From positions 29,122 through 93,121 of the IMG/VR virus record IMGVR_UViG_3300032030_000021: a stretch of DNA of 64,000 bases; one strand, given 5' to 3'. Shown one piece after another: positions 6,386-62,081 of this stretch. The notes beneath the pieces are model-generated. The model was not told where the DNA came from and ran no database searches. It saw nothing but the letters and a program-made list of their open reading frames with translations. Within the stretch, counting starts at the first letter, position 1. Each line of letters begins with the position of its first letter. The DNA comes from a virus. Lineage: Duplodnaviria; Heunggongvirae; Uroviricota; Caudoviricetes. Made by a program: the position numbers and the translations under genes.

Positions 6386-6390
6386 CTCAT

Positions 6391-11427: not shown

Positions 11428-11452
11428 ACCTTAATTGGTATTTAATACAAAA

Positions 11453-11479
11453 AGACCTCTTCGGGGGTCTTTTTTTTTG
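11453..11479 (+). terminator. rho-independent terminator after sheath gene
   Basis: GACCTCttcgGGGGTC (UUCG loop) plus T9. Confidence 0.75.
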
Positions 11480-11577
11480 AAAATTTATTAATAACACTAG
11501 AAGACGCAGGCTTATATATGATATACGATGCTGGGCAGACAAAATGACGTTGGAGTTATACATTTCAAATCCCACGA

Positions 11578-11651: not shown

Positions 11652-11682
11652 TGCATTTTAACATTAATTTTTGAGCACCGGT

Positions 11683-11697
11683 GATTATATAATATCA
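11683..11697 (+). promoter_or_regulatory. RTTATATAW promoter-like box (GATTATATAATATCA) upstream of the TGT-like gene
   Basis: One of ~20 occurrences of G/A-TTATATA-T/A located 10-30 nt upstream of start codons, often directly after a terminator. Confidence 0.4.
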
Positions 11698-20392: not shown

Positions 20393-20401
20393 AAGAGACA
20401 C

Positions 20402-24174: not shown

Positions 24175-25737
24175 ATGAAAGAATTAGATTTTGATTATCC
24201 GGAATTTGAAAAATTAAATCCATCTAATTGTAGAGAAGCATCTATTAGTATTCATTATCCCGAATTTAAGGAATATTTATACAACAAATATCCAGACATA
24301 CCGTTTCCTGAAAAAATATATTTATTTTATCATAACAAGGGCAATCCCGGGATTTGTAAGATGTGTGGAAATAAGACGAAATTTATTGGATTTAAGAAAG
24401 GATATAGGGAGTTTTGTTCTTACGAATGCATGAATTCTTGCGAAGAAATACAAGAACGCAAAAAAATTACATGTCGAAAAAATTATGGCACAGACAACCC
24501 TATGGGTAGTCTTGAGTTAAAAGAAAAAATAAAACGGACATGTTTAGAAAAATATGGAGTAGAGAATTGCTTTCAGTCACCGGAGCTCATGAAAAAAGCT
24601 CGAAAAACATGCAAAAGAAAATACGGGACGGAATATGCTACTCAGTCCCTGTCTGTAAAAGATAAAATATTAGAATCTAGAAGACAGAATATATTAAATA
24701 ATGATGACAGTATATTAGATATTATTCACACAGACAATCATTCCGATCTTTATATTATGAAGTGTCCGGATTCCGGATGCAATCTGTGTTCTAAAAAAAG
24801 ATATGAAATAAAATCTAATATATTATATGATCGTTGCAGATTAGGAGTAGACCCGTGCACTATAAGAACTCCAGTGGGGTCCCATATCAAAAATACGGGT
24901 CTTGAAAAATTTGTTCAAAATATATTAGATGAGTATCATATACATTATATAGCTAATGATAGAAGAATTTTGGATGGGAAAGAATTAGATTTATATATCC
25001 CGGATAGAAAAATAGCTATAGAATGCAATGGTGTATATTGGCATTCTAAATTAGATATGTTTTATCATTATAATAAGTGGCAATATTGTAAAGAAAAAGG
25101 AATTCAACTACTGTCGGTTTGGGAAGATTGGGTGACTAATAAACCGGATGTAATTAAAAATATTATATTGTCTAAGTTGAATATATATGATAATTTTATT
25201 GGTGCGCGAGAATGTGCGGTGGAGCCCGTATCCGCAAAAGAGGCGCGAGTGTTTTTAGATGAAAATCATATTCAAGGTTTTTGTAGTAGCACTATAAGAT
25301 ATGGATTATATTATAAAAATGAATTGGTGGCTTTAATGTGCTTCAAAAAAACTAATAATCCATCTTCTAAAAGGAATATTGGGTGGGAGTTATTAAGGTT
25401 TTGTTCGAAAATAGGATGGCACATAGCCGGGGGTGCTGGCAAGTTATTGAAATACTTCCGGGAAGATCATCCTGAACCAATTATATCATTTGCGTCTCAT
25501 GATATCTCTAATGGAAAATTATATGAAACACTCGGATTTCGGCATACTAGTGAAATTAAAACCTGCTATTGGTATGTCCATAACCAAACTCATAAAAGAT
25601 TTCATCGATCCTCATTTACTAAAAAAGAATTGGTAAGAAAAGGATATGATTCCAAGCTTACCGAAGAACAAATTATGATAAACTCAGATTATTTTAAAAT
25701 ATATGATTCCGGACAAACAAAATACATTTTGGAGTGA
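24175..25737 (+). CDS. free-standing homing-endonuclease-like protein (Vsr/DUF559-like nuclease domain plus zinc ribbon and tandem K-x-T-C-x-x-K-Y-G-x-E-N modules)
   Basis: Contains CKMCGNKTKF, three ~33-aa TC..KYG.EN repeats, and ELDLYIPDRKIAIECNGVYWHS (Vsr FVHGCFWHGH-like) followed by WEDW. Confidence 0.55.
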   Translation: MKELDFDYPEFEKLNPSNCREASISIHYPEFKEYLYNKYPDIPFPEKIYLFYHNKGNPGICKMCGNKTKFIGFKKGYREFCSYECMNSCEEIQERKKITCRKNYGTDNPMGSLELKEKIKRTCLEKYGVENCFQSPELMKKARKTCKRKYGTEYATQSLSVKDKILESRRQNILNNDDSILDIIHTDNHSDLYIMKCPDSGCNLCSKKRYEIKSNILYDRCRLGVDPCTIRTPVGSHIKNTGLEKFVQNILDEYHIHYIANDRRILDGKELDLYIPDRKIAIECNGVYWHSKLDMFYHYNKWQYCKEKGIQLLSVWEDWVTNKPDVIKNIILSKLNIYDNFIGARECAVEPVSAKEARVFLDENHIQGFCSSTIRYGLYYKNELVALMCFKKTNNPSSKRNIGWELLRFCSKIGWHIAGGAGKLLKYFREDHPEPIISFASHDISNGKLYETLGFRHTSEIKTCYWYVHNQTHKRFHRSSFTKKELVRKGYDSKLTEEQIMINSDYFKIYDSGQTKYILE

Positions 25738-27353
25738 TGGAGATACCAAATATTAGCAACCTTACATCCAAAGAACTTCAGGGTAAGTGGTTTGAAAAGA
25801 ATTATCTGGAGTTTTATCAGCATCTTGTAAATACATATCCAAATCTCCAAAAATTCACTGAAAAATTGTATTGGTATCTCCACGATATCAAAGAAACACC
25901 GAAATGTACTTGCGGAAAACCTCTGAAGTTCCGGAGTCTCAAGGTCGGATATTCCGAGTTCTGTTCGGCCAAATGTTCTAATTCTAATCCGGAAAAAATC
26001 AAAAAGACTAAAAATACATGTCAAGAACGATATAGATCCTCTTCTCCGGCCGGCAATAAAGACATCCAAGATAAAATGAGGAAAACATGTCTGGAAAAGT
26101 ATGGTGTAGAAAATTATCTAGAAATTTCCCATCGAACGGGAAGTCTTTCGGAAGAATCTAAGCAAAAAATGAAAGAAACCTGTATAGAAAGATACGGTGT
26201 GGAAAATGTGATGAAGCTTCCGGAATATCAAGTTATTGTCAATGGAAATAAAGATTATAAAAAACTATCGGAAAAAGCTCGAGAGGCTCGAAAAAACCGG
26301 GTTATGAATCAAAATCCGGATATAATATCTATAAAAAATGGTTTATGGACTTGCCGGTGTCCCCATCCCAATTGTACCAAATGCGATAAAAAATCATATG
26401 AAATAACGGCTCAAATGTATCATGATCGCCGAAGAGATCATACGGAGCCTTGTACTATACTTTTAGCACCTTCACCGAATAACAATAAAAATACTTCTTT
26501 AGAAATTTTTGTACGGTGTTTATTAGAAGAGCATAATATAGAATATATTGCAAATGATCGATCTATATTAGGAGGCAAAGAACTAGATATATACATTCCG
26601 GATCGGAAAATAGCCATAGAATGCAATGGTGTTTTTTCACATAGCTCTAGATATAAACCTAGAAATTATCATTATGAAAAATATAAAGCTTGTTCGGAGC
26701 GGAACATCCGTCTTATAAGTATCTGGGAGGACTGGGTTCGGAATAAGCCGGAAATTGTCCGGAGTCTGATTTTAAGCAAGCTGAACATATATGAGAACCG
26801 TATAATGGCTCGTAAATGTGAGGTGAAAGAGATAAATAGTAAAATAACAGGTAAATTTTTAGAAGAAAATCATATTCAAGGAAAAACTTCTTCAAATATA
26901 CATTTGGGCCTATATTATAAAAACGAATTGGTGGCGGTGATGCTGTTTGGAAAAAAACGAATGTGCTCCGGGAATAATAAAACAGCTGGGTGGGATTTAA
27001 GCAGATTTTGTACTAAAAGAAATATTTGTGTGATTGGGGGTGCGGGGAAGTTATTAAGTTATTTTATAAAACGGTGGTCTCCGGATATGATATATTCGTT
27101 TGCATCATGTGATATTTCTAATGGAAATCTTTATAAGTCTTTAGGGTTTGTAAATATAGGCCATTCCTCTTCATATTGGTATATAAACGAGCGCACCCTT
27201 CAAAGATATCATAGAAGTTCCTTTACTAAAAAATCCTTGATAAAACGAAACTGGGCTGATGGAACGGAAACTGAAACTGATGTAATGAATAATCATGGAT
27301 TCTTGCAAATCTATGATTCCGGTACGGAAAAGTGGATACTGAAGATTATCTAA
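25734..27353 (+). CDS. paralog of the upstream Vsr-like endonuclease
   Basis: Same architecture (ELDIYIPDRKIAIECNGVFSHS, ISIWEDWVRNKPE). ATGA overlap with the upstream paralog. Confidence 0.55.
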   Translation: MMEIPNISNLTSKELQGKWFEKNYLEFYQHLVNTYPNLQKFTEKLYWYLHDIKETPKCTCGKPLKFRSLKVGYSEFCSAKCSNSNPEKIKKTKNTCQERYRSSSPAGNKDIQDKMRKTCLEKYGVENYLEISHRTGSLSEESKQKMKETCIERYGVENVMKLPEYQVIVNGNKDYKKLSEKAREARKNRVMNQNPDIISIKNGLWTCRCPHPNCTKCDKKSYEITAQMYHDRRRDHTEPCTILLAPSPNNNKNTSLEIFVRCLLEEHNIEYIANDRSILGGKELDIYIPDRKIAIECNGVFSHSSRYKPRNYHYEKYKACSERNIRLISIWEDWVRNKPEIVRSLILSKLNIYENRIMARKCEVKEINSKITGKFLEENHIQGKTSSNIHLGLYYKNELVAVMLFGKKRMCSGNNKTAGWDLSRFCTKRNICVIGGAGKLLSYFIKRWSPDMIYSFASCDISNGNLYKSLGFVNIGHSSSYWYINERTLQRYHRSSFTKKSLIKRNWADGTETETDVMNNHGFLQIYDSGTEKWILKII

Positions 27354-33589: not shown

Positions 33590-33702
33590 ATGGGTTGATT
33601 TCCAATGATTTATAATAAGATCCTTATAAGAATTTTTATAGGGATCTTTTGAGATGCTTGAAAATTTATCTTAACCTTTTCCGAAACCGATTATATATTA
33701 TC

Positions 33703-35769: not shown

Positions 35770-37541
35770 TAGAATTATATTATAATCCAAAAGATTCCCG
35801 GCATATCCTAGTGATGCACGACGGGACTATGAAGGAAGTTTCCGATCGAAAAGGCACTCATCGGACATCCGAGATTCTTTTATTAGAAAAACATCTGAAC
35901 AAAATACCGGACTATCAGTTTCTGCCATCATTCACCGGCATACAAAGGCCGATGGTGTTTTTAGAAAAGAAGAAGATCAAGGACAAATGGGTATACTATT
36001 GTGTGAGGGGGTTATGGCATGAAATCAAGACTTGGTGCAAGGAATCCGGCATCATATGTAATGGGGTGTATAATATCTCCGATTACGGCAAGCTCGATAA
36101 AAAACCGGACACTTCTTTCCAGCTAACCAATTTTGATATGTCCGAAGAGTCTTTTATGGAGTATGTGAATAATTGGGGCCTGAATTTAGATCTGCGGCCA
36201 TATCAGTATAAAGCCATATGGACTATACTTCATTACCGGCAGTCTATGTCTCAACTAGCCACCCGAGCGGGCAAGACCCTGATAGCCTATGTCATATTCC
36301 GATATATGCTAGAGCACGGAGCTAAGAAGATTCTGATGGTGGTCCCGAATATCAATCTAGTAAGACAGGGTGTGAAAGATATGAAGGACTATCAGGAGTA
36401 TTTCAAGTCCGAAGAGGTCTGGGCGCAAGGCGAATACTGCCAATGCGCTAATCTGACCATCGGAACATTCCAGTCCCTGATCAAGAGATGCGTGCCCGGC
36501 AAGAAATATAAGCCGAATAAACATTACGATCCGCATTTTTTCGACGGATATGATGTAATATGTATAGATGAATGCCATAAGGCGGATTGCGATTCCATTA
36601 AGACCATCATGAAACAGGAATTTGTCCGCGATGCTAAGCTTATCTTCGGGTTTTCCGGAACCATTCCGGATGCTAATACTATCGAGAACTATGGTGTGCA
36701 GGCTATCCTAGGTCCGATGATACAAGATATCTCTACTATGGAATTGGTAGATGCCGGGTATCTAGCCAAACCCATTGTGAGGCAAATCAGAATGCACTAT
36801 GAAGATTCGCCGGAGTTATTGGATAAATATATTAAGTATGGAGAATACTTATGCGGCCGAGATACCGGAGAGAAACTAGAAAGTCCTGATATTGGAATTA
36901 ATAAAGTTAAATCCCTTCCTATTGTGCTCCGTGAATCTAAAGGTCTATATGAGAAAGAAGAATATAAGCAGATCTTAATAGATATGTGCAAGGCCAAAGG
37001 AGCCGCTCTCCTGAATCTGGAGCAGCTCCTGGCTATGAACTCTCGAGGAAAGATAGATACTATTATGCGGATATTGTCTGACTGGCCGGATAAGAACGGT
37101 ATCGTGTTTGCTCATAATGAAGAATACGTGGATTACTTATATAAATATCTATCAGAGACTCTAGATCGTCCGGTATATAAGATAAAAGGATCCACCACCA
37201 ACAAGAAACGGGAAGCTATTAAGAAGGCAATGAATGAAATCGATAAGAATGCGGTGTTGGTAGCTAGCTATGGATGTGTGGCTACCGGATTGACATTCTC
37301 CAATATCGATTGGTGTATCTTCGCCCAATCCTTCAAGTCTCCGATTCTGGTCATGCAGTCCATCGGAAGAGGACTGCTAAAGACCGAAGAGAAAGACCGG
37401 TTTATTGTTTATGACCTTATAGATGTATTTTCCACCGGAAGACTGGAGAAACATGGTAAGGAAAAAACTAAGCATTATGCCAAGGTCGGATATGAGCATT
37501 CTACTCGATCCGAGAACCTGAAATATATTCCTATATTTTAA
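35766..37541 (+). CDS. superfamily-2 DNA/RNA helicase (DEAH-box type)
   Basis: RPYQ (Q-motif), ATRAGKT (Walker A), ICIDECHKA (DECH), plus C-terminal helicase motifs. Confidence 0.7.
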   Translation: MIELYYNPKDSRHILVMHDGTMKEVSDRKGTHRTSEILLLEKHLNKIPDYQFLPSFTGIQRPMVFLEKKKIKDKWVYYCVRGLWHEIKTWCKESGIICNGVYNISDYGKLDKKPDTSFQLTNFDMSEESFMEYVNNWGLNLDLRPYQYKAIWTILHYRQSMSQLATRAGKTLIAYVIFRYMLEHGAKKILMVVPNINLVRQGVKDMKDYQEYFKSEEVWAQGEYCQCANLTIGTFQSLIKRCVPGKKYKPNKHYDPHFFDGYDVICIDECHKADCDSIKTIMKQEFVRDAKLIFGFSGTIPDANTIENYGVQAILGPMIQDISTMELVDAGYLAKPIVRQIRMHYEDSPELLDKYIKYGEYLCGRDTGEKLESPDIGINKVKSLPIVLRESKGLYEKEEYKQILIDMCKAKGAALLNLEQLLAMNSRGKIDTIMRILSDWPDKNGIVFAHNEEYVDYLYKYLSETLDRPVYKIKGSTTNKKREAIKKAMNEIDKNAVLVASYGCVATGLTFSNIDWCIFAQSFKSPILVMQSIGRGLLKTEEKDRFIVYDLIDVFSTGRLEKHGKEKTKHYAKVGYEHSTRSENLKYIPIF

Positions 37542-37633
37542 TGCGCAAATTCGCGCTAAATTCAAGCGATCGTATCTTAGATGACCAGTTATATCACTTA
37601 AAGTGTGATCGCTTGTTATATCGCAAATATGAG
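37541..37633. repeat. conserved intergenic element copy 2 (GCGCAAATTCGCGC..TTCAAGCGATCG..35 nt..GATCGCTTGTTATATCGCAAATATG)
   Basis: Inverted repeat AAGCGATC/GATCGCTT flanks a ~35-nt spacer. Lies between the helicase gene and a tagged-family gene. Confidence 0.6.
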
Positions 37634-37695
37634 AGTTTTTGAAAAATATTATATGATCCCGGAAAGATTTTGATTATTTAATCAAATATGTTAAT

Positions 37696-38520
37696 ATGAA
37701 GACAATAGTAGAATCTATAATAGGAAGAAGAGGGTCTAATAAAAAATTATATATAGTAAGTCCGAAAGGTTCGGATAACTATTTATATTGGAATAGTAAG
37801 TTTACTTATAATGGAGTTGCGGATAGTCGAGGGTACTTTTATTTTGTTTTGACAAAAGATGAACTCCAAAAATTTCTTCCGCAGGAGCCGGATACTAGCA
37901 TTTATTTAGTCGATGACGATACCGTAGATTATAAGAAATTGGAACAAGATGTGGAAAAAACAAAAGATCTTTTAAATAATCCTCTTATATACTTAAAAAA
38001 AGTAGACGTAATGTCTATCAGCGAATCTATAATAGGACGAAAAGGTGTGCCGAAAGAAAACGGGACCGTATGGGGAATGCTTTCCCCGCTTTTCGACCCG
38101 CATGTAGAAACCACACACGATATCAATCATTTGGTATATATATTTACGGCCCCGATTATGAAGGTTAAAAAAACATATACCAATATATTTAATATCATGT
38201 GTGATGCAATAACACTATTCAGACATTCCGCTTATTTATTTCCCACGGCAGCATGTGCCGAAAAAGATTACTTATATGTATTAAATGAGGTAAGTGTGAA
38301 TCTTAATGTAATTAGAGATGGGCGGATTGCCGGTTCTTGGACCGAATCTATCCAAAGACTGGAGGAACGGAAAGAAGTATCTTCTAAATTGAAAAAGATA
38401 AGCAGGAAACTCATCGATTTTGATCTCTCGGGAATAAATGAAATCGCATTCCGATACTATTTCGATAATAAGAAACAACCGATGACATTAGAAATGATTA
38501 ATATAGATATTGCTATATAA
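37696..38520 (+). CDS. tagged-family protein, in-frame tandem fusion of two tagged modules
   Basis: Starts MKTIVESIIGRRGSN. A second complete tag MSISESIIGRKGVPK starts in frame at nt 38011 with no stop between them. Confidence 0.55.
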   Translation: MKTIVESIIGRRGSNKKLYIVSPKGSDNYLYWNSKFTYNGVADSRGYFYFVLTKDELQKFLPQEPDTSIYLVDDDTVDYKKLEQDVEKTKDLLNNPLIYLKKVDVMSISESIIGRKGVPKENGTVWGMLSPLFDPHVETTHDINHLVYIFTAPIMKVKKTYTNIFNIMCDAITLFRHSAYLFPTAACAEKDYLYVLNEVSVNLNVIRDGRIAGSWTESIQRLEERKEVSSKLKKISRKLIDFDLSGINEIAFRYYFDNKKQPMTLEMINIDIAI

Positions 38521-38536
38521 CTTAAAAAGGATCGAT

Positions 38537-38920
38537 ATGAAATCTATAAAGGAATCTATAATAGGAAGAAGGAATACATCAATACAGAGGACATTAATAA
38601 TCATACCGGTACATGAAGATGCACATTTTATGTATGATTCGATTAATTCAAGTAATGGTATAATTCGAACAAGATCTAAGAATGGTTGGGATATTTTTGT
38701 TTTATCTATCCGGGATGCCACCTATGATTTAATCGTAAATATTAGAAGTAAATATACAAAAATATGTATTGCGGAGCTCCCTGTAAAAAATGTTATAGAT
38801 TTGTGTTATAAAATGCATGTGGGCATATTATTCAAGAGCAATGCTCTTAATAGCATTCCTCCGGAATTCAAAGAAATCACGAAAGAGGATTGTATAAAAT
38901 TATTAAAACAAAATAAATAA
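38537..38920 (+). CDS. tagged-family protein
   Basis: Starts MKSIKESIIGRRNTS. The track ORF starts upstream at 38510. Confidence 0.6.
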   Translation: MKSIKESIIGRRNTSIQRTLIIIPVHEDAHFMYDSINSSNGIIRTRSKNGWDIFVLSIRDATYDLIVNIRSKYTKICIAELPVKNVIDLCYKMHVGILFKSNALNSIPPEFKEITKEDCIKLLKQNK

Positions 38921-38924
38921 AAAC

Positions 38925-39326
38925 ATGAAACACATCAGCGAATCTATAATAGGGAGGAAAGGAGCGGGGCAGTTTCAGTCTATAATAATTGTTCCATTGG
39001 AATCGGATTATATGACTTTCAGTAATAATATATCTTATGTGGTCCCGTTTGATTTTGGGTCTGGTAATATATGGAAGGGGTTTGCTACGATATGGGATAA
39101 TGCGGAAGATATTTTCCGGAACATCATATGGCCACAAACTAAGATATTTATATCCGGCATGCCTGTGGATGATTTTATCAAAGAATTTACTCGCACCAAC
39201 AAACGTTCTCGATCTATAATGACAGTTAAAGTTAATGCTCAGAAAAGTTATCTTATAAATCCGCCGGAGGGAGCCAGACAGATAACCTTAGACGAACTTA
39301 GAAATATTGTCAAAAAATATAAATAG
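38925..39326 (+). CDS. tagged-family protein
   Basis: Starts MKHISESIIGRKGAG. Confidence 0.6.
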   Translation: MKHISESIIGRKGAGQFQSIIIVPLESDYMTFSNNISYVVPFDFGSGNIWKGFATIWDNAEDIFRNIIWPQTKIFISGMPVDDFIKEFTRTNKRSRSIMTVKVNAQKSYLINPPEGARQITLDELRNIVKKYK

Positions 39327-39330
39327 AAAA

Positions 39331-39777
39331 ATGAAAGACTTCAAAAAATATATAACCGATAAGAAAGAGATCTCCGCCGGATTCTTATTTGAGACTCCGG
39401 AGGGATTTTTGTTAGTCCATCCCACCGCTAGGGCTAAAAGCAAGGGTAATTGGGATATCCCTAAAGGACATATTGAAACCGGAGAATATCCGCTAGAGGC
39501 GGCTATTAGGGAATTAAAAGAAGAAACCGGACTGGATTATAATCCGGACTGGGAAACGGACTTTTTAGGACAATTCAACTATACTCTTACTAAAGATCTT
39601 TTATTATATCATCTTCATTGTCCGGTGGTACCAGATGTCAAGAAATGCAAGTGTACTTCTTATTTTGATCTTAACGGCAAAGAGACTCCGGAAAATGATG
39701 ATTTCATGATCACTAAGGAATTAGAATATACGTTTCATTCTATGCAGAAGATATTAAAAAAATTGGGACTGCTATGA
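39331..39777 (+). CDS. NUDIX hydrolase
   Basis: Nudix box GHIETGEYPLEAAIRELKEETGL. The first ATG is at 39331; the track ORF started at a TTG at 39307. Confidence 0.7.
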   Translation: MKDFKKYITDKKEISAGFLFETPEGFLLVHPTARAKSKGNWDIPKGHIETGEYPLEAAIRELKEETGLDYNPDWETDFLGQFNYTLTKDLLLYHLHCPVVPDVKKCKCTSYFDLNGKETPENDDFMITKELEYTFHSMQKILKKLGLL

Positions 39778-40127
39778 AAACTATAAAAGAATCTATAATA
39801 GGGAGGAAAGGAGTGCATTCTCCGGAGTTATATATATTTCATCCGTGTGCTGAAGATTATGATTTAGCTTTAGATATTTTGCCGAAGGAACATATGGTTA
39901 AAACAAAGGATGGGCCGTTTTTTTATTGTATAGATAAAATTGAATTAGAACGGTATCTTAGGAAAGTAGGACAACATAAACTTATCGGGCCTAATATACA
40001 CAGAAAATTAAACGGGTCCAGTACTCTGTATAAGGTAATAGGTTCCTCCGATCTCGATCAAATAAAGGATTTATTAAAAACTCACCCGTTTGTTGAATTA
40101 AAGAATTTGGTGATCCGTATTGCTTAA
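39774..40127 (+). CDS. tagged-family protein
   Basis: Starts MKTIKESIIGRKGVH. Confidence 0.6.
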   Translation: MKTIKESIIGRKGVHSPELYIFHPCAEDYDLALDILPKEHMVKTKDGPFFYCIDKIELERYLRKVGQHKLIGPNIHRKLNGSSTLYKVIGSSDLDQIKDLLKTHPFVELKNLVIRIA

Positions 40128-40142
40128 AATAAACATTGAAAT

Positions 40143-40670
40143 ATGCAAAATAAAATACTAACTATAGTCTTTATAATCTTATATGCGGCGGTAGCATTCG
40201 TCTCTACGTACCATGCCATCTTCTTCTTCGGACTTTCCAACCCTATGTGGTTGGCGGTGATCCTGGCGATCGCCTTCGAGGTAGGCCAGGCCGTGGTTCT
40301 GTTTACCATCCTGACTTCTAATATCAAGCAAGTGATGAGTTGGGTGCTAATGGGGATCTTAACAATCGTACAGTGTCTGGGTAACATTTTTAGTTCGTAT
40401 AAATGGATGCTTCTACATAATGCCGACCAGATACAATATTTTACCAAGTCCGTATTGTTTTTCGTACAATCTCCGAATCCGGAATATAATTATGTGATGA
40501 TCTCCTATATCACCGGAGCGATTCTTCCGATAGTAGCTCTCTGCTTGACTAGTATTGTGGCTAAGATGATCAAAGGATCTCCGGCGGAGTCTCCGGCGGA
40601 ACCTATTATAGAATCTCCGGCGGAACCTGAAAAAGACGTAGAAGAAGACGTATTTATACCGAGTAATTAA
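40143..40670 (+). CDS. integral membrane protein (about 4 TM) with C-terminal (E-S-P-A-E-P) repeats
   Basis: Hydrophobic segments ILTIVFIILYAAVAFV, WLAVILAIAFEVGQAVVLFTIL, WVLMGILTIVQCLGNIF and ILPIVALCLTSIVA. The tail is SPAESPAEPIIESPAEP. Confidence 0.5.
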   Translation: MQNKILTIVFIILYAAVAFVSTYHAIFFFGLSNPMWLAVILAIAFEVGQAVVLFTILTSNIKQVMSWVLMGILTIVQCLGNIFSSYKWMLLHNADQIQYFTKSVLFFVQSPNPEYNYVMISYITGAILPIVALCLTSIVAKMIKGSPAESPAEPIIESPAEPEKDVEEDVFIPSN

Positions 40671-40684
40671 ATATAATAAGGATT

Positions 40685-41074
40685 ATGAAACACATCCATG
40701 AATCTATAATAGGTAGAAAAGGTACAAATTCAATTAAATTATGGCTGCTATACCCTGTAGTCAAGGATTTTTATATCGCATTAGAAGTGTTGCCGAGGGA
40801 CTGTAGGATTTATTGGGATAATACGTCTTTGTTTTGTGTAAACCGCCAACAATTAAAAGAGTTTTTTGATAATCTTTCAAATGATAATATGTTTACCGAC
40901 CCGAATAGTGCTCTATTTGAGATAAATCCACACTATTTAAGAAATATTAAAGATGTGAAAGATTGGATAGTCGGTTTATCTTCCGATAATTGGAAAGATT
41001 TTGATTTAATATATAAAGCTGAAGAATTAAATCAGATAACTGTCGATATTCCAAAATATATTAAAAGTTTATGA
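40685..41074 (+). CDS. tagged-family protein
   Basis: Starts MKHIHESIIGRKGTN. Confidence 0.6.
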   Translation: MKHIHESIIGRKGTNSIKLWLLYPVVKDFYIALEVLPRDCRIYWDNTSLFCVNRQQLKEFFDNLSNDNMFTDPNSALFEINPHYLRNIKDVKDWIVGLSSDNWKDFDLIYKAEELNQITVDIPKYIKSL

Positions 41075-41592
41075 AACATATAAATGAATCTATAATAGGA
41101 CGGAAAGGATCTATGTGGTCATTGGATATACCAAAAAAGGCGGAAGATCTGGAGTACGTAAAATCATGGAAGACTCTTCCCGGATATGCCGCGGAATTCA
41201 ATATAGAAATTCCAAGAATCAAGCAAAAGGGATTGGATGATGTAACGGATTTCATATATAGTATGATATTCGAGAACCGGAAAAATATAGCTAACCCGAC
41301 ACAATGGATTATGAAAGATTTAGGCTTATCAAATTATGTTCATAATTTGTTATGTGATACTAGATTTCTTTATAATGATCCGAACAGCAGTACATATACA
41401 GTAAATCATCAATATTCTATTCAATATAGAAGTCCGTTGTTTGACAAAAAAGATAAAGATATCTGGTATGATATATACAAAATAGTTTGTAAATTTGATA
41501 ATAATATCGGCTTGGATGATATTAATCTTCGGATTATGTACGTATGGAATACTCATAATGAATTAGATCAAATAACAGTATTTTTAAATTAA
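41071..41592 (+). CDS. tagged-family protein
   Basis: Starts MKHINESIIGRKGSM. Confidence 0.6.
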   Translation: MKHINESIIGRKGSMWSLDIPKKAEDLEYVKSWKTLPGYAAEFNIEIPRIKQKGLDDVTDFIYSMIFENRKNIANPTQWIMKDLGLSNYVHNLLCDTRFLYNDPNSSTYTVNHQYSIQYRSPLFDKKDKDIWYDIYKIVCKFDNNIGLDDINLRIMYVWNTHNELDQITVFLN

Positions 41593-41701
41593 ACATGAAA
41601 GAAACCAAAGAATACGGTAATTGTGATATGATTTGCTGGGATTGCGAATCTTCCGCGCATTGTTGGTATTTTGAGTCTTTATTGAAAGAAAATGAAGAAT
41701 T

Positions 41702-42127
41702 ATGAAACATATAAATGAATCTATAATAGGAAGAAAAGGAATTACCAGTATTCCGAAGCTGGAAAATCATGATATTGTTAAATTAGACAATGATCATTAC
41801 TACATGGTTGTCTTAGATGAATATGAGATGAAACTCGCTAAACTAGATTTTTTTAAAAGCCAGGTCACGGAAGGGATCCTTTTAAGATATGAAGCATCTA
41901 GCCGGTCTTGGTCTTGGCAACCAATAAATGAATATAGTCTGCTGGACTTAAAAATAAACCCGAAATTTAAAAGCACAATATCACTAGACATATGTGAAGT
42001 ATATCGGAGTCTTTCGGCTATCACTACTAAATATAACAATCATCTATATATGTGGTGTGATGAAGAAAATATGAAAGAAAAAATCAAAAAAGGATACGGA
42101 GTTTATAAATTATTGTGGAAAAGATAA
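41702..42127 (+). CDS. tagged-family protein
   Basis: Starts MKHINESIIGRKGIT. Confidence 0.6.
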   Translation: MKHINESIIGRKGITSIPKLENHDIVKLDNDHYYMVVLDEYEMKLAKLDFFKSQVTEGILLRYEASSRSWSWQPINEYSLLDLKINPKFKSTISLDICEVYRSLSAITTKYNNHLYMWCDEENMKEKIKKGYGVYKLLWKR

Positions 42128-42151
42128 CTTATAAGAATCAATATAGAAGAT

Positions 42152-42577
42152 ATGAAGACATTACAAGAATCTATAATAGGAAGAAAGAATTCGAGCTCGG
42201 TTCTAAAACATGATCGCACGGGGCTTTATGAGGGTGATATAGTCTATTTTAAATGCCATCCGTATAAACCATATGTAGTTATATTAAATCCTGATATATA
42301 TAAAAAATTCCTGTTACCGAGATCATTGAAAGATTATGATTGTACGGAGGGGGTCCTCATAACCCCCGGTAGAGATGGTTCTTATGGATTTATGGTTCTA
42401 TCGGATTATGATAAAAATCTTAAATTTACGGAAAACTCCGATCCGTGGAACATAACTGAAGTAAAAAGAGGATATATTGGATCACATCGGCTTGATAAAT
42501 TATTAAATGATATAGATGGCATATATGACATATCGAGAGGTTTTAAAACCGTTTTTGAAAACGGGAAATGGCTATAA
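42152..42577 (+). CDS. tagged-family protein
   Basis: Starts MKTLQESIIGRKNSS. Confidence 0.6.
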   Translation: MKTLQESIIGRKNSSSVLKHDRTGLYEGDIVYFKCHPYKPYVVILNPDIYKKFLLPRSLKDYDCTEGVLITPGRDGSYGFMVLSDYDKNLKFTENSDPWNITEVKRGYIGSHRLDKLLNDIDGIYDISRGFKTVFENGKWL

Positions 42578-47770: not shown

Positions 47771-48169
47771 ATGAAACATATACATGAATCTATAATAGGG
47801 AGAAAAGGAATCGATAAAAACCGAACAGATATGTTAATGCCCGGGGATATTGTGGAATATGACTTTCGAGACACACATTTTTGGAGATTTATTCCGAAAC
47901 GATATATACCCGATGGTGTTTGGAAAGATATCTTAAAAGCAAACCCCCCAAAAAACTCCAATTTATTGGTAGCTCTGGCTTGGAGCAATAATAAATCCTA
48001 TTATTGTACTTGGGTAGATCTTGGAAATATTATCAGACCCGACGAATTGGTTGGTAATAGATTTGGACAGGTATGGAGACAGAAAGATGTATGGGTGTAT
48101 GAAAAACCGGAGGACTTGCGCATAATGTTAAATGATCTGGAAACGGCTAGAATAATCAAAGAAGATTAA
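47771..48169 (+). CDS. tagged-family protein
   Basis: Starts MKHIHESIIGRKGID. Confidence 0.6.
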   Translation: MKHIHESIIGRKGIDKNRTDMLMPGDIVEYDFRDTHFWRFIPKRYIPDGVWKDILKANPPKNSNLLVALAWSNNKSYYCTWVDLGNIIRPDELVGNRFGQVWRQKDVWVYEKPEDLRIMLNDLETARIIKED

Positions 48170-48170
48170 A

Positions 48171-48575
48171 ATGATATCTATCAAAGAATCCATCATAGGA
48201 AAAAAGGGGTATATCAGTGTACCTACATTGCAACAAGGAGATATTATAATTACTCGGCGTGATGATATATACATGGTACTGACGGATCAAGATTGTTTGA
48301 AAAAAATTCTAAATCCGGATAGTTTCAGATATTATGATATGTCAAAAGGGGCATATGTGCGCGGCGGTGGTGGAGGCGCAGGTTTCATGGATCTTAGTTC
48401 CTTTAATGACAAATTAGAAAATACCGATGGTTCTGACGTTTACGACATATTCCAAGTATGGAGGAATCCCCGGAAACAGAATAATATCACTTCCAATGAT
48501 GATATTAATCAAATTATTCAAACAGAAAATTTAAAACTCTTAAAAAAATCTTATAAATTAATCTGGGAGAGATGA
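48171..48575 (+). CDS. tagged-family protein
   Basis: Starts MISIKESIIGKKGYI. Confidence 0.55.
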   Translation: MISIKESIIGKKGYISVPTLQQGDIIITRRDDIYMVLTDQDCLKKILNPDSFRYYDMSKGAYVRGGGGGAGFMDLSSFNDKLENTDGSDVYDIFQVWRNPRKQNNITSNDDINQIIQTENLKLLKKSYKLIWER

Positions 48576-48919
48576 GACATATCAGCGAATCTATAATAGG
48601 GAGAAAAAATGCGCCTGTTGCCGAATATTGGATAGAATTCGGTGGATTGGATCCCAAGTTACTTAAGCAATATGCGAAAGGCGATATATCTTTCACGGAT
48701 CTGACTATGGGATTAGTAGCGGAAGAGATCACATACACCGATCCAAAAGACAATTTCACGGAAACCGATATGCTTCAATTCGCTAAACAATTTATAAACA
48801 AGAAGTATAAATTCCCGAAAATGGTATATGCTCGCGTTATGGATAAACATAAAGAAGTAATAGATACTATCTATGGCCGGGATTTTCAATACGATTTAGA
48901 TAAATATTGCAAGAAATAA
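48572..48919 (+). CDS. tagged-family protein
   Basis: Starts MRHISESIIGRKNAP. Confidence 0.6.
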   Translation: MRHISESIIGRKNAPVAEYWIEFGGLDPKLLKQYAKGDISFTDLTMGLVAEEITYTDPKDNFTETDMLQFAKQFINKKYKFPKMVYARVMDKHKEVIDTIYGRDFQYDLDKYCKK

Positions 48920-49332
48920 TGAAACACATACAGGAATCTATAATAGGAAGAAAATCGGCTTCGATAAGCAAATCGTCTATATCGGATGGGGATATTTTAG
49001 AAACCCGAGCCGGAGTGGCATTTGTATATATATCCGAAGATACTTGGGATAAAAATCTGAGCGGTCATTTTCCTGGTGGAGCTCTCGTTAATCCGGATGA
49101 TCCCAATTTTGATTTTGACTCGGTTACCAATAAATTTGATTATTGGCATGATGACCTGACGGGATCCGAAAGACATTTTGATATTGTCAAGATATACAAA
49201 GTTGATAATGATCAAAAACAGGCATATTATACGGCACTCAAAATAAAAGTCCTCCGGATTAAACGGTCTATATTAAAATCATATATCGAGAATATTATAA
49301 GTCATGCAACCCCAGTATCTATAAATAAATAG
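48919..49332 (+). CDS. tagged-family protein
   Basis: ATG at 48919 gives MKHIQESIIGRKSAS. The track ORF starts 4 codons earlier. Confidence 0.6.
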   Translation: MKHIQESIIGRKSASISKSSISDGDILETRAGVAFVYISEDTWDKNLSGHFPGGALVNPDDPNFDFDSVTNKFDYWHDDLTGSERHFDIVKIYKVDNDQKQAYYTALKIKVLRIKRSILKSYIENIISHATPVSINK

Positions 49333-49368: not shown

Positions 49369-50154
49369 ATGGAGAACATGGTGCTTTTTGATTTCAGTAA
49401 AAATGAAATCATAGATGTAGGCGGAATGACCGGCCAATATTCAGGATGCTATTTCGATAGGGAAAATAATGCTTATATGTGCAAATCTCAAGGGTGTCAG
49501 AATCCCGAATGGTATATCCAGCAGAAGATAGCAATCAATCAAGAAAAATATTTTGATTTCTCAAAAAATATGATTGATGTCGGGGCTTACATCGGCATTT
49601 ATAGATGGAATCTACCTTTTCAAAAGGCCTGGCTGTTTGAACCGAATAGAGAATCCTATATGTATTGCTGTGCCAATGCTGTACTACACAATCGAGTAGA
49701 AGATACCTTTATATATAATGAAATTCTTTCTCGAACCCATGAAGTTATAAGGTTTAACGGATATGAGAGCGTAACGGAAAATATGGTCGGTGCTAAACAT
49801 ATGAAAGGACAATTGTTTTATTTGAATGATGATACAATAATGATATCTAAGACACTGGACGATTTCTTGCCGGATTTCGATAATATCGGATTTATCAAAA
49901 TAGATTGTGAGGGTATGGATTGGAAAGTTATAGACGGCGGAAGAAAAACTATAAAATATTTTAACTATCCGCCAATATTGTTTGAGAATTGGCCGCCTCA
50001 AGACCATCCAAGATACCCGGTTTGGCTTAATGAATCCGGAGATGCCGCACAAGAGAGAAATAAAAATGTCCGGAGGGTATTAGAAGAACTGGGATATGAT
50101 ATATTGTGGGAATGGGGAGATTTCGAAACACATCTCGCAATACATAGGCCGTAA
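49369..50154 (+). CDS. FkbM-family SAM-dependent methyltransferase (second paralog)
   Basis: MIDVGAYIGIY...FEPNRESY...TLDDFLPDFDNIGFIKIDCEGMDW. Confidence 0.6.
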   Translation: MENMVLFDFSKNEIIDVGGMTGQYSGCYFDRENNAYMCKSQGCQNPEWYIQQKIAINQEKYFDFSKNMIDVGAYIGIYRWNLPFQKAWLFEPNRESYMYCCANAVLHNRVEDTFIYNEILSRTHEVIRFNGYESVTENMVGAKHMKGQLFYLNDDTIMISKTLDDFLPDFDNIGFIKIDCEGMDWKVIDGGRKTIKYFNYPPILFENWPPQDHPRYPVWLNESGDAAQERNKNVRRVLEELGYDILWEWGDFETHLAIHRP

Positions 50155-50167
50155 GGCCTTTTTTTAT
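50146..50167 (+). terminator. rho-independent terminator overlapping the stop codon of the FkbM gene
   Basis: AGGCCgtaaGGCCT plus T7. Confidence 0.6.
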
Positions 50168-50234
50168 GCTTAATTATTTCATATCTGGATTAATATAAAT
50201 CCATAAAAATATATTAGCATGAGATGTTTTTATA

Positions 50235-50329
50235 AAAATCGCATAAATCTTGTTAATTCAAGCGATCTTGCTTTGAGTGATATAAATGGTCATACGAGAT
50301 ACGATCGCTTGTTAAATCGCAAAAAACCG
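50235..50329. repeat. conserved intergenic element copy 3 (TTCAAGCGATC..35 nt..GATCGCTTGTTAAATCGCAAAAAA)
   Basis: Perfect 9-bp inverted repeat CAAGCGATC/GATCGCTTG. Upstream of the DNA polymerase gene. Confidence 0.6.
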
Positions 50330-50417
50330 TGCTTAAATAAGAAATTATAATCATGGTTTGATTTTTCAAAAATCATCTATGCTCTTCTATATAAATATTG
50401 GATAAAATTAATAATAT

Positions 50418-53369
50418 ATGATATTAGATTACGGGTACGATAAGAACATCAAACAAATGTCCATCTCCTATATTGATGAAGATGGCAACAAGAAGATATT
50501 GCATTATGACAACCTCCAGAGATTCCGGACCTATTATTATACTCCTTCCGGAAGATATAATACCTGGGATGAAGCTAAATGCGATGTCAAGATGACTTCC
50601 GATCCAAGCAAGTTTGATCTTAAAGAATTCATATATAATCTGGATGAAGAAACCCAGAAGAAGATCAACGGAAAGACTTTTCCTAAGTTATATTCCTGGG
50701 ATATTGAGACTCAGATCAAGTCCAAGACCGAATTTACGGATCCTACGATAGCGGACATGCCGATTCTGACTATATCTGTCGTGGCTCCGAATCTGAGTGC
50801 TATCGTTCTAGGTACCCGGACCTTGGAAGATCCGGCGGTGGAGAATATCCGGAGGCAATATTTCGATTATCTGGAGAGCATTCCGTTCTACCGGGAGAAC
50901 CGCGACCTGTTCCAGCCGAAATTCCAATATATATACTTCGAGACGGAGGAGGCCATGCTCAAGTGGTTCTTGAAGAACATCGTAGCCAAGGTTCCAATCC
51001 TGGCCGGATGGAACTCTATCGGGTACGACTGGTGTTATGTCACTTCCCGGATCCGGAATTTCTACCCCAATATCTCCATCAAAGATTCTTCCTGGACCAA
51101 GACGCTCACCTTCAAGAACTATACTAACCAGCGCAAGGAAGACATCCGCCTTCCTCACCCCATGCATACACTGGTGCTGGATATGATGGATATTATCGAT
51201 ACTGAGGATGCCGTAGTAATGCCCATCAAAGAATCTCTGAATCTGGATTATATTGCTCATGAATCATTAGGTGCAAACAAGATCGAATATTCCGGAAGTC
51301 TGCAAGACCTATACAATACGGATTATCCGCGATATGTGTTCTATAACTGTATCGATAGCGTACTGGTGCAGCTTATTGACAAGCGATTCAAGACCATGGA
51401 CCATATCTATATGTACTCTATCTATTGCACGGAGAAAATTGGAAGCTGTTTTTCGAAGATCGCCTTAACGGAAGCATTGATTTTAAGAAACTTCCGCGAG
51501 CGAAATATCAAGATCGTATATGAAAAGAAAGAGCAGCCGGAAAGAGGCAGACTGGTCGGAGCATATGTCAAGATGCCGGTAGCCGGACTGTGGGAGCTGG
51601 TATGTTGTAATGACTTTTCCGGACTGTATCCCACTACGGGTATTGTCACTAATGTAAGTTTTGATAACTTCGTCGGCACCTTTTATAATGAAGCGGCTCT
51701 GGATAAATATAGAGGCGATCCTAAATATATTGTGGTTTGTGCTAGTGTATATAAAAACAAAGGCACCATAGACAAGCCGGAGTTGGGAGAGTTTGTAGCC
51801 CAGTATCTGGATGAGGAAGCATTGGAACCCTACCGCAAGGATAAAAACTATTTCGTATCTATCAACGGGCATGTCTATAAAAATGACAAGGACTATACTT
51901 TGAAAACCGTATGGAATAATCTGAGAATGGAAAGAGCATTCAGCAAGTATCTTTCTAAGAAAATGGATGCTCAGATCATTTCCGATATAGATCACATTCT
52001 CCGGTGTTATAAGGACCACCCCCAATTAGGATTGTCCGAGCTTAATCATGATATTCTCCATAAATACGAGAAAGATGAAATTGATGTCCTGAAGAGTGTG
52101 GGATATAGTATTACTTCCGGTGAGAATCTGGTTAAAATGTCCGAAAAAGACCTCAAAGAACTCAAACGGAAGGTCAAGACGGAGATTACCTATCATTCCA
52201 ACCTGGAACAAGCTATCAAGCTTATGATGAACTCTATCTACGGGGGAACCTCGCACCAGGCATTCTATTGGTTCAATATTGCTTTGGCTAACGACATCAC
52301 CGGAGAAGGTCGCAACCTTACTCACCACATGGAGCGCCACCTCAATGAGTTCTGGAGAGATGCTTGGCAGACTAATCCGGACTTGAAAAAGATCCAAGAC
52401 GAACTCGACCTGAAGCTGAAACCGGAAAGTGCAATTAAAGCAATACTTGAGGCGTCACATGATAACTCCTTGGTTACCACGGTATACGGAGACACCGATA
52501 GTTTGTATCTTTCCTATAAGGATCTTATTGATACCATTGAAGGATCCGAGAAATTCACATTAGATGAGAAACTTAAGATCATTCTCAAGATCAATACGGA
52601 ATTCTTGGATAAACATAATGAAGATCACCTGAGAGAATACTTCTTATCTAGAAATGCCCGTCCGGATACCGCCGGATTGGAGGCATTCGAATTGGAGACC
52701 GTCAACAAGCGTGGCGTATGGCTTCGGGATACCAAGAAGAGATATGCTCAGATCCTGCTCTGGAAGGAAGGAAAATTCTATGATCTGGACGATCTACCTA
52801 TGAAAGTCAAGGGTTTGGAGGTGATCAAGTCTTCTTATCCGACCCTATCCCGGAATCTGCTGAAAAATATGTTCCGGTTCATGCTAGAATACGACGGCAA
52901 ATATCTTTCTCAGGAGCTGAACTTGCTTAACATAAAACAGAGGGAAGAATGGAACAGTGCCCCGATTGAGGATATCTGTGCTAATGTCCGATGCAATAAA
53001 TATACCGATTATGTAGCGGATGATACCAAGGAGCTCATACTCAAGCCCAAGTGTCCGCCTAATGTCCAGGCATTGGCGAGATACAACTGGCTCAACAATA
53101 CCCATAAGTTCGGGTCGGAACCACTGTATGGCGGAAAGATCAAGCAATATATTGTCAAGCAGATGATTCGAAAGACCAAGTCTACTCAAGTGGATCAGTT
53201 CTTTGGCTACGAGAGTAACAAATACCCGAAGTGGGCAGATCAATATGCTCCGATAGACCGGACCCGGATGTATCAAAACTATGTGTTGGATCCTATTAAT
53301 AGAATCTTGGAGGCTGTTGGTATGCCTAAGCTCATGATTGACGGATCTATACAGATGGGATTGTTTTAA
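50418..53369 (+). CDS. family-B DNA polymerase with 3'-5' exonuclease domain
   Basis: Exo I YSWDIETQ. Motif A DFSGLYPT. KLMMNSIYGG. Motif C YGDTDSLYL. Confidence 0.9.
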   Translation: MILDYGYDKNIKQMSISYIDEDGNKKILHYDNLQRFRTYYYTPSGRYNTWDEAKCDVKMTSDPSKFDLKEFIYNLDEETQKKINGKTFPKLYSWDIETQIKSKTEFTDPTIADMPILTISVVAPNLSAIVLGTRTLEDPAVENIRRQYFDYLESIPFYRENRDLFQPKFQYIYFETEEAMLKWFLKNIVAKVPILAGWNSIGYDWCYVTSRIRNFYPNISIKDSSWTKTLTFKNYTNQRKEDIRLPHPMHTLVLDMMDIIDTEDAVVMPIKESLNLDYIAHESLGANKIEYSGSLQDLYNTDYPRYVFYNCIDSVLVQLIDKRFKTMDHIYMYSIYCTEKIGSCFSKIALTEALILRNFRERNIKIVYEKKEQPERGRLVGAYVKMPVAGLWELVCCNDFSGLYPTTGIVTNVSFDNFVGTFYNEAALDKYRGDPKYIVVCASVYKNKGTIDKPELGEFVAQYLDEEALEPYRKDKNYFVSINGHVYKNDKDYTLKTVWNNLRMERAFSKYLSKKMDAQIISDIDHILRCYKDHPQLGLSELNHDILHKYEKDEIDVLKSVGYSITSGENLVKMSEKDLKELKRKVKTEITYHSNLEQAIKLMMNSIYGGTSHQAFYWFNIALANDITGEGRNLTHHMERHLNEFWRDAWQTNPDLKKIQDELDLKLKPESAIKAILEASHDNSLVTTVYGDTDSLYLSYKDLIDTIEGSEKFTLDEKLKIILKINTEFLDKHNEDHLREYFLSRNARPDTAGLEAFELETVNKRGVWLRDTKKRYAQILLWKEGKFYDLDDLPMKVKGLEVIKSSYPTLSRNLLKNMFRFMLEYDGKYLSQELNLLNIKQREEWNSAPIEDICANVRCNKYTDYVADDTKELILKPKCPPNVQALARYNWLNNTHKFGSEPLYGGKIKQYIVKQMIRKTKSTQVDQFFGYESNKYPKWADQYAPIDRTRMYQNYVLDPINRILEAVGMPKLMIDGSIQMGLF

Positions 53370-60991: not shown

Positions 60992-61018
60992 AAGGACCTC
61001 CGATGAGGTCCTTTTTTA
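60992..61018. terminator. bidirectional terminator between queE (+) and the minus-strand tagged-family cluster
   Basis: AAGGACCTCcgatGAGGTCCTT has T-runs on both sides and sits between convergent stops at 60986 and 61016. Confidence 0.7.
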
Positions 61019-62078: not shown

Positions 62079-62081
62079 GTC

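Follow-up and report, generated by a model that had tools for sequence, protein, structure and literature searches.

Short non-coding sequences that can fold into hairpins are known from both phages and bacteria, and the element reported here has to be read against them. In T4-type phages, the promoter early stem-loop (PeSL) cassettes are conserved hairpin units between genes, through which modules are shuffled (Arbiol et al. 2010, PMC2839356; Comeau et al. 2014, PMC4122927). Each PeSL combines a strong sigma-70 early promoter with a GC-rich terminator stem-loop, and about 50 of them are present per genome, upstream of ORFans. The REP (repetitive extragenic palindromic) sequences and bacterial interspersed mosaic elements (BIME) are recognized by hundreds of 20-40-nt palindromes, a conserved 5' tetranucleotide, and a gene for a REP-associated tyrosine transposase (RAYT); MITEs (miniature transposable elements with inverted repeats), such as the Correia type, by terminal repeats, a constant target duplication, a precise empty site, and a cognate transposase; and intrinsic terminators by a GC-rich stem, a short loop, and an immediate T-run. 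Hairpin-flanked inversions of the "flip-flop" type occur in chloroplast non-coding DNA and at parvovirus termini. This study concerns a palindromic intergenic element in 64,000 nt of phage DNA (Caudoviricetes; IMG/VR virus record IMGVR_UViG_3300032030_000021, positions 29,122 to 93,121), and this whole stretch is called the window below.

The original prediction was of a conserved intergenic sequence of about 100 nt that is present three times and might be a class of early promoters with an operator, a replication origin, a small structured RNA, or a homing or recombination site. We found that the sequence belongs to a family of palindromes with a covarying stem, an inner segment that occurs inverted, and a conserved box; its position varies between related phages, and homology between them begins or ends at its edges. 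Our tentative explanation, to which we give a rough probability of 0.38, is a DNA-level, orientation-independent palindromic module that would serve as both a recombination linker and a hairpin insulator, with a box read by a putative phage protein.

Three copies and a family with a covarying stem

The core sequence CTTGTTAWATCGCAAAWA matches three times in 64 kb, at positions 11632, 37612, and 50308 (copies 1 to 3), always on the plus strand. None of 100 shuffled sequences reached three matches (shuffled mean, 0.47), and a fourth core site was absent from the whole window even with three mismatches allowed. A covariance model (R1), built from relatives and run over the whole window with its filters off, recovered the same three sites, so the three predicted copies are borne out. 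The next match reached only 14.7 bits (E 0.27) and is an ordinary terminator hairpin at 33606-33665, with a GATC at the base of its stem (AAGATCC...GGGATCTTTTG). Another 16 kb of flanking sequence beyond the window held no further copies, that is, there are three copies in about 80 kb. The parts of the three copies are as follows.

37554..37632, plus strand: copy 2, the best copy of the window (model R1, 80.3 bits, E 1e-18)
37563..37584: left arm of copy 2, CAAGCGATCGTATCTTAGATGA, with the left GATC at 37568-37571
37572..37606: inner segment of copy 2, 35 nt between the GATC sites, with the apical motif CAGTTATATCAC
37594..37615: right arm of copy 2, TCACTTAAAGTGTGATCGCTTG, with the right GATC at 37607-37610
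37612..37629, plus strand: core of copy 2, CTTGTTATATCGCAAATA, in which CTTG belongs to the stem and GTTATATCGCA is the sequence-conserved box
50250..50328, plus strand: copy 3, upstream of the polymerase gene (model R1, 65.0 bits)
50259..50311: hairpin of copy 3, in which CAAGCGATC on the left and GATCGCTTG on the right bound 35 nt of inner segment (50268-50302) that carry the apical motif GTGATATAAATGG
50308..50325, plus strand: core of copy 3, CTTGTTAAATCGCAAAAA
50238..50256, plus strand: direct repeat of the box in the left flank of copy 3, ATCGCATAAAT followed by CTTGTTAA
11574..11652, plus strand: copy 1, degenerate (model R1, 33.4 bits), with its core at 11632-11649

The inverted repeat CAAGCGATC/GATCGCTTG lies at 37563/37607 and 50259/50303, and its arms are exactly 35 nt apart in both copies, in agreement with the predicted spacer of about 35 nt. 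Copy 2 has both arms, with 35 nt of inner segment between them, as well as the conserved box, and its repeat extends to 22-nt arms that are 73% complementary and enclose an apical loop of 9 nt. The 9-nt arms of copy 3 are 100% complementary at the same 35-nt spacing. In copy 1, the right half and the core are intact and the left arm is gone; the apical TATATAAATG is retained at the same distance from the core, and a collapsed palindrome, AACAAGATCTCTTGTT, stands at 11622-11637. A third repeated sequence, AATTCGCGC, was indeed located in two copies, at 11579 and 37548, but we give it little weight because its offset from the core differs between the two and because the orthologous copies in L024 and L106 lack it (L-numbers denote the related loci or contigs compared). 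The claim that the copies lie in the longest non-coding gaps is true of copies 1 and 3 (286 and 263 nt, the longest real ones), whereas the 154-nt gap of copy 2 is merely among the next longest.

Public collections were scanned with the patterns CTTGTTANATCGCAAA and GATCNCTTGTTANATCGC(A), and chance matches inside genes were set aside. About 33 distinct copies with the same architecture were found in IMG/VR and metagenome contigs from the rumen and the human gut; a capsid-protein search for related loci gave two loci only, and this set of copies is no unbiased census. At least four copies are present in the approximately 55 kb examined of the 152-kb contig 3300037454_000478, and three are present in the 115-kb contig 3300032030_000026. 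Among bacterial and archaeal genomes (185,579 species, one genome each), the patterns matched 11 times, always by chance and without the hairpin. An Rfam scan of the whole window gave no match at the gathering score, and a tRNA scan was also empty. As judged from sequence, the known carriers are uncultured T4-like phages whose hosts are Bacteroidota of the gut and rumen, and the element appears to be confined to phages and undescribed in the resources searched.

The distance from GATC to GATC is 34-35 nt in 20 of the 33 distinct copies and 37 nt in three more, and the overall length of the element is about 80-100 bp. The base of the stem reads AAG(A/C)GATC ... GATC(T/G)CTT, with a compensatory switch from A:T to C:G beside the GATC; in the next 13 stem pairs, the sequence is free to differ between copies while complementarity is kept. 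The apex is AT-rich and carries the motif ATAACT(T)ATA in either orientation. Directly to the right of the stem stands the right box, GTTAWATCGCA(A/T)A(T/A)A, often followed by AAACGCGC. On the left side there is either an inverted box (L048a, L077, L097, L072, and L089), with which the palindrome can reach about 100 bp, or a direct box instead (L046, L047, copy 3, L066, and L104); the direct form TCGCA(T)ATAAA, as in copy 3, is also found in L048b and others.

The stem covaries, as a covariation analysis proposed with the original prediction could reveal. In an alignment of 20 sequences, 81% of the stem cells are paired, against 37-52% with slid partners, and 69 cells have changes on both sides; none of 500 shuffles attained the observed values. 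In L140, which was found by the model alone, CTTG has become CGCG with a matching change in the left arm. Because this change is compensated, CTTG is to be counted as stem, and the sequence-specific part is GTTAWATCGCA. The mismatches within the stem (42 G.T and T.G vs. 35 A.C and C.A) have no strand bias.

The inner segments of copies 2 and 3 are related by inversion: their 35 nt agree at 11 positions when compared directly and at 27 as reverse complements, a value reached by none of 100000 shuffles, and in the central 17 nt the agreement is 6 direct and 16 reversed. Both orientations of the apex recur in the family, unrelated to the direction of the neighbouring genes. Together with the absence of mismatch bias, this favours a DNA-level or strand-independent element over a specific RNA. 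Active phase-variable inversion has no support, since the same phage recovered from three to four samples has identical copies 2 and 3. Because each locus keeps one fixed orientation across samples, the flips of the inner segment are evolutionary events with no visible switching.

Two further candidates were set aside. The gene caller gives a 43-aa open reading frame (ORF) over copy 3 (50219-50350), and copy 2 has a 33-aa ORF (37541-37642) in the same frame that shares, by eye, ..NSSD.. and ..DRLL.RK.. with it. Stops, however, break this frame in copy 1 and in the L046 type, and the 34-nt spacing found elsewhere shifts it (by eye). The small ORFs over copies 2 and 3 are probably spurious, because the frame is not kept across the family. 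A link to Dam or GATC methylation was also rejected: the two methyltransferases near copies 2 and 3 are of the FkbM type, and GATC is not depleted in the window (337 sites).

Gene contexts, shifting positions, and breakpoints

When the copies are oriented by their core, about 28 have readable neighbours: 10 are co-directional with plus-strand genes, about 11 are convergent, six lie between minus-strand genes, and one is divergent. Enrichment is seen at gene 3' ends and at convergent junctions. In the convergent cases, the element takes up the entire gap, and 9-22 nt separate the core from the minus-strand gene's stop codon; in L074, this codon is inside the box. No gene family (a homing endonuclease or a recombinase, for example) was seen to recur beside the element, the neighbours being unrelated except in orthologous pairs. 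Within the window, copy 1 separates the tail-sheath gene from a block of nucleotide metabolism, copy 2 the helicase from a run of small ORFs, and copy 3 another small-ORF run from the polymerase. A conserved position upstream of the polymerase gene is ruled out by four relatives (polymerases 68-72% identical) that have no element there and differ in local gene order.

In the common intergenic cassette of this phage, a canonical rho-independent terminator comes first, and directly behind it stand (T)GCTTAAT, a 16-nt spacer, and (GGAT)TATATA. At least eight full copies of it exist, plus copies of the -10 part only (sites at 14250, 14906, 16880, 30663, 32809, 44149, 57568, 58339, and others). Co-directional copies of the element occupy the terminator slot of such ordinary cassettes and have a TTATATA-type promoter behind them; the distance between the core and the first -10-like TTATATA ranges over about 20 to 80 nt.

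Comparison of related phages places homology breakpoints at the edges of the element. Homology between L070 and L089 exists only from the left edge of the element onward, and L094 and L098 are 99.9% identical until just beyond its right edge and unrelated thereafter. In three further pairs (L093/L106, L021/L092, and L077/L097), the element is the only common sequence. An 83-aa ORF adjoins the core in L066 and is missing in L067, and an 80-nt indel abuts copy 1 in the comparison with L024. The box is kept better than the surrounding genes in orthologous pairs: ACAACAAGATCTCTTGTTATATCGCAAATATG of copy 1 matches the L024 ortholog at 32/32 positions in genomes that are about 80% identical, and copy 2 and L106 differ by one substitution from the right GATC to the ATG, with flanks about 84% identical.

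The immediate surroundings of the window copies contain the following features.

11441..11482, plus strand: ordinary rho-independent terminator, upstream of copy 1, that belongs to the tail-sheath gene (context only)
11661..11693, plus strand: downstream of copy 1, a promoter of the general type (CATTAAT, 17 nt, and TATATA preceded by GAT; context)
37669..37686: small palindrome TTTGATTA/TAATCAAA, after copy 2 and before the start codon
50146..50200, plus strand: canonical terminator (50146-50159), then a site like the general promoter, TGCTTAAT ... GGATTAATATAAAT, upstream of copy 3 (context)
50359-50375: counterpart palindrome TGATTTTT/AAAAATCA after copy 3, at the matching position in the alignment
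50418-53369: family-B DNA polymerase gene (Pfam DNA_pol_B)

Only copies 2 and 3 have in common a -10-like hexamer 20 nt past the core and a small TGATT..AATCA palindrome, which stands at an operator-like spot between the hexamer and the start codon.

Candidate functions

According to the explanation that we prefer, the element would occupy the slot between transcription units, and its hairpin would insulate or terminate transcripts arriving from either side. Its conserved sequence and palindrome together may form a short homology patch for the recombinogenic replication-recombination machinery of T4-type phages, so that its edges could become places of module exchange, insertion, or deletion and the inner segment could be turned around, and the box is probably read by a putative phage protein. 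Among the four functions originally proposed, a homing or recombination site fits best, as homology is gained and lost at the edges of the element and a one-ORF indel abuts the core.

Several observations weigh against this explanation. The terminator scan called the neighbouring canonical terminators and did not call the window copies of the element; no T-run stands behind the stem, the tail being TTGTTATAT and, on the minus strand of the L046 type, TTTTATAT; and the phage uses canonical terminators elsewhere, including at one convergent junction. The folding z-scores of the window copies are weak (DNA, -2.1, -0.8, and -0.7; RNA, -2.2, -2.45, and -0.4), while two distant copies have -6.4 and -7.7. 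The core of copy 1 is perfectly kept despite the lost left arm, at about 80% genome identity. Because the window hairpins are weak and the box is nevertheless kept, the box seems to matter on its own, and a pure hairpin model is insufficient. Covariation overstates function, because template-switch correction of quasi-palindromes can keep the arms complementary without selection. Breakpoints near contig ends may partly reflect the behaviour of assembly at repeats. The invariance of the box and core across contigs is partly ascertainment, because most members were recovered with a pattern that includes the core; copies found by the model alone (L116, L021b, and L140) vary in the box.

A replication origin or primosome-loading site, in which the AT-rich apex would be the unwinding element and the repeated TCGCA boxes the initiator sites, is unlikely. 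The origins of T4 are recombination hotspots, and origin activity would likewise make this site a hotspot; breakpoints do lie at its edges. The few copies per genome (three in about 80 kb, and at least four in about 55 kb of the 152-kb relative), the independence from orientation and strand, and the way in which paired GATC sites go together with an AT-rich centre and direct boxes on the flanks point the same way. The right arm GATCTCTTGTTAT may resemble the 13-mer consensus of Escherichia coli oriC, GATCTnTTnTTTT, and there are candidate likenesses to a DnaA box, the lambda boxA, and the T7 class II terminator. However, the cumulative GC skew has no local change at 11.6 or 37.6 kb (although it follows transcription here), copy 1 keeps the box with its palindrome lost, no initiator gene was identified among the window ORFs, and the place beside the polymerase gene is not conserved. 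A binding site for a phage regulator, whether operator, activator site, or antiterminator-loading site for the adjacent units, would make the palindrome a pair of half-sites. It would suit the stretch from core to promoter, which outlasts the flanking genes in the orthologous pairs (copy 1/L024, 32/32; copy 2/L106), as well as the hexamer and palindrome shared by copies 2 and 3 and the two sigma-like proteins of the window, which imply that phage-specific transcription control exists. Yet the approximately 11 convergent copies have no promoter to control, the distance from core to promoter varies, the orientation relative to the neighbouring genes is not fixed, and no gene family was found to recur next to the element, so we regard this view as rather unlikely. 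The idea that the core is itself a distinct promoter class, serving as -35 and -10 or as the recognition box of a phage sigma factor, is scarcely credible. TTGTTA resembles a -35 hexamer, all three window copies face downstream plus-strand genes, and the phage encodes sigma-like proteins; but no conserved -10 stands 16-18 nt after TTGTTA, CTTG covaries as stem and not as a recognition sequence, the abundant promoter of this phage is another motif (GCTTAAT, 16 nt, TATATA), and a sigma-70 scan at the elements gave background with nothing significant. At convergent copies, there is no gene downstream to drive, and the mixed contexts (convergent and minus/minus copies in relatives included) and the variable promoter distance make a poor fit to either a promoter class or an activator site of fixed geometry. 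A promoter class with an operator lacks support as the general function and would suit no more than the way in which copies 2 and 3 are arranged locally. A host-type Bacteroidota promoter (TTTG ... TAnnTTTG), looked for by eye on both strands near the core, was also rejected: partial -7-like matches on the minus strand only (CATATTTG and TTTATTTG) were seen, with no -33 at the right distance. A T4 middle promoter has a MotA box (TGCTTtA) at -30 and a -10 element 11-13 bp downstream; the element is not of this kind, as copy 3 alone has TGCTTAA, 10 nt before TATAAT, and copies 1 and 2 lack it.

A non-autonomous mobile element, that is, a MITE or a derivative of a hairpin-recognizing transposon similar to the palindrome-associated transposable elements, could have spread within and between phages and settled where it does least harm. 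Published work (10.1101/2024.01.18.576219) reports MITEs from viral genomes, with Bacteroidetes among the groups covered. Inverted repeats at the termini that reach 19-23 nt in L048a, L072, L077, L089, and L097, a position that differs between relatives, and the preference for gene 3' ends and convergent gaps are consistent with such an origin, and deleting the palindrome and one CGC in the L046 type would restore a single box, AAATCGCAAATAAA. Against this, the flanking repeats (0-3 nt) differ between copies and give no consistent target-site duplication, the differences among relatives are homology breakpoints and not clean presence or absence at a true empty site, and the stems of copies within one genome are strongly different. 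Moreover, domain searches found no integrase, transposase, or HUH domain among the window ORFs, and the 185,579 bacterial and archaeal genomes hold no counterpart, which leaves this explanation rather improbable. A structured RNA (a cis-acting leader, an RNase-processing or stabilizer hairpin, or a small RNA) would account for the covarying stem and for the RNA z-scores of copies 2 and 3 (-2.2 and -2.45 vs. shuffles), and copy 3, being downstream of a promoter-like site, may be transcribed in the polymerase leader. We nevertheless consider it most improbable, given that there is no Rfam match and no asymmetry between G.U and A.C mismatches, and that, with the box or the neighbouring genes as reference, the apical motif is seen facing either way; the small structured RNA first proposed thus finds no backing. 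In addition, copy 1 and its L024 counterpart are probably not transcribed, because they are placed between a terminator and a promoter.

A more specific form of the recombination idea is borrowed from the attC sites of integrons. Folded palindromes would be the substrates of a dedicated and so far undescribed recombination system in lytic T4-like phages of Bacteroidota: a putative nuclease or recombinase would recognize the elements, and these would be the sites at which cassettes of genes are traded and the inner segment of 35 nt is turned around. The AAC...GTT ends, the fixed spacing of the arms, the paired and sequence-free centre, and the conserved reader box are what this analogy rests on, and we consider it very unlikely. 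If it were true, it would mean an integron-like cassette-shuffling device in a virulent phage.

What is known of the large T4-like phages that infect Bacteroidota of the gut and rumen comes almost solely from metagenomes, and their regulatory and recombination signals are uncharted. A conserved, structurally constrained element that marks rearrangements would offer a handle on module shuffling in these phages and could be used as a sequence tag to recognize the lineage in metagenomes, and the defined box of 11-25 nt (25-nt form, GATCTCTTGTTATATCGCAAATAAA) would be a bait for the protein that reads it. Should the element turn out to be an origin, or to be what a dedicated recombinase acts on, this phage group would have its first defined signal of that kind.

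Other features of the phage, and comparison with known systems

The window encodes a T4-type major capsid protein (Pfam Gp23), a family-B DNA polymerase, a helicase, a tail sheath protein, and a prohead protease. A nucleotide search of the window against 50,697 INPHARED phage records gave zero matches. By tblastn, the capsid protein is nearest (about 31% identity) to those of the Prevotella Lak phages and of Tenacibaculum, Flavobacterium, and Chryseobacterium phages; the related contigs come from rumen and human-gut metagenomes, and Shine-Dalgarno sequences were not seen, by eye, ahead of the start codons. The phage is taken to be an uncultured T4-like phage with a host among the Bacteroidota. 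Outside the window, the same phage (L130, 16411-19776; L133, 1457-3220) encodes an intein-containing NrdD as well as a type IA topoisomerase, and in the relative L116 an insertion of about 475 nt (6148-6624) splits the polymerase match.

Two ORFs, at 59438-60040 and 62518-63495, are sigma-factor-like and both fall slightly under the Pfam cut-offs; the one of 200 aa matches region 2 only (E 1e-4), and the one of 325 aa matches regions 2 and 4 (E 4e-5). They suggest phage-specific promoter classes. An N-terminal tag, MK(T/H)(L/I)xESIIGRKG, opens about 30 of the 75 listed predicted proteins of the window, for example, in genes at 5933, 18563-22042 (nine genes), 34398, 37696-42577, 47771-49332, and 61016-62450 (minus strand). 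It is also present in L038 and L106, and the homology between the window and L106 stops about 35 nt inside gene 37696, right after the tag. A literature search for "ESIIGRKG" returned no paper containing the string. By analogy with the signal of the T4 internal proteins, the tag could be a candidate capsid-targeting or propeptide leader.

A cluster of genes of the nucleotide- or DNA-modification type (16937-18043, 13666-14187, 60081-60986, and 11714-12517) includes an adenylosuccinate-synthetase homologue (of the PurZ type by its PHROG name), a dCTP-deaminase-like protein, and a radical-SAM protein, and from these a modified-base genome is possible. The gene at 11714-12517 behind copy 1, which had been labelled "TGT-like", has no Pfam match, and its sole match is a PHROG of unknown function. 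Directly behind the major capsid gene, in a GC dip (0.32), two paralogous ORFs at 24175-27353, of 520 and 538 aa and 43% identical to each other, have PHROG matches to homing or HNH endonucleases, along with DUF7487 and a weak Vsr-like match. At 330-5373, adjacent paralogous proteins of 1228 and 447 aa, 40-67% identical across repeated segments, have BspA-type leucine-rich repeats and are likely host-recognition proteins.

Among the known systems, the PeSL cassettes share with the element the format of a conserved intergenic cassette of about 100 bp with a stem-loop, in T4-type myoviruses, that borders variable gene blocks; the breakpoints of insertion, deletion, and replacement expected of such a cassette were found (L070/L089, L094/L098, L066/L067, and the window/L024). 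The element differs in that it has no internal promoter consensus, is present about three times per 80 kb, and occurs in all gene-orientation contexts. It has a long palindrome, GATC-anchored arms, an invertible AT-rich apex, and a conserved box that is not a promoter, and its hairpin, set beside the PeSL stem-loop, has a covarying stem and a loop of 9-14 nt, with no T-run and a silent terminator scan. We regard the terminator-promoter cassette described above, and not the palindromic element, as the true PeSL-like cassette of this phage. The features of an intrinsic terminator (GC-rich stem, short loop, and immediate T-run) are not those of the element.

As in REP/BIME, enterobacterial repetitive intergenic consensus (ERIC), and Correia sequences, short imperfect extragenic palindromes are enriched at gene 3' ends and in convergent gaps, and the potential to form a DNA or RNA hairpin, a conserved outer sequence, and a variable interior are shared with REP/MITE-like palindromes in general. 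Unlike these, the element is restricted to phages and low in copy number, has no consistent target duplication and no RAYT or other transposase in sight, and has stems that diverge strongly between copies at an arm spacing fixed at 34-35 nt. In place of the hundreds of 20-40-nt palindromes with a conserved 5' tetranucleotide and a RAYT gene, there are three copies of 80-100 nt each in about 80 kb, and no Y1/HUH domain in the window. Terminal repeats of the MITE type extend for 11-19 nt beyond the GATC in 8 of 26 copies and for 0-5 nt in most, including the window copies; the flanking direct repeats measure 0, 1, 2, or 3 nt and give no constant target duplication, and neither a precise empty site in the relatives compared nor a cognate transposase among the window ORFs was found.

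The attC sites of integrons are imperfect palindromes of similar size with ends of ...AAC and GTT... and a centre conserved in pairing and length, and they too stand at ORF 3' ends with single-ORF indels adjoining. The ends of the element, ATATAAC and GTTATAT, however, misfit RYYYAAC (R'') and GTTRRRY (R'), and it has an extra ATCGCA box; its copies are neither arrayed nor co-oriented, no integrase is encoded in the window, and the likeness is a lead only. With the flip-flop loops, the element shares a short segment bounded by inverted repeats that is found in both orientations among homologous copies, but here the flip sits inside a conserved, multi-copy phage element and has one fixed orientation per locus. 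In other words, each of the PeSL, MITE, REP, attC, and intrinsic terminator classes fails in at least one defining feature, and the element is best regarded as comparable to both the REP/MITE-like palindromes and the PeSL cassettes, of which it would be an analogue.

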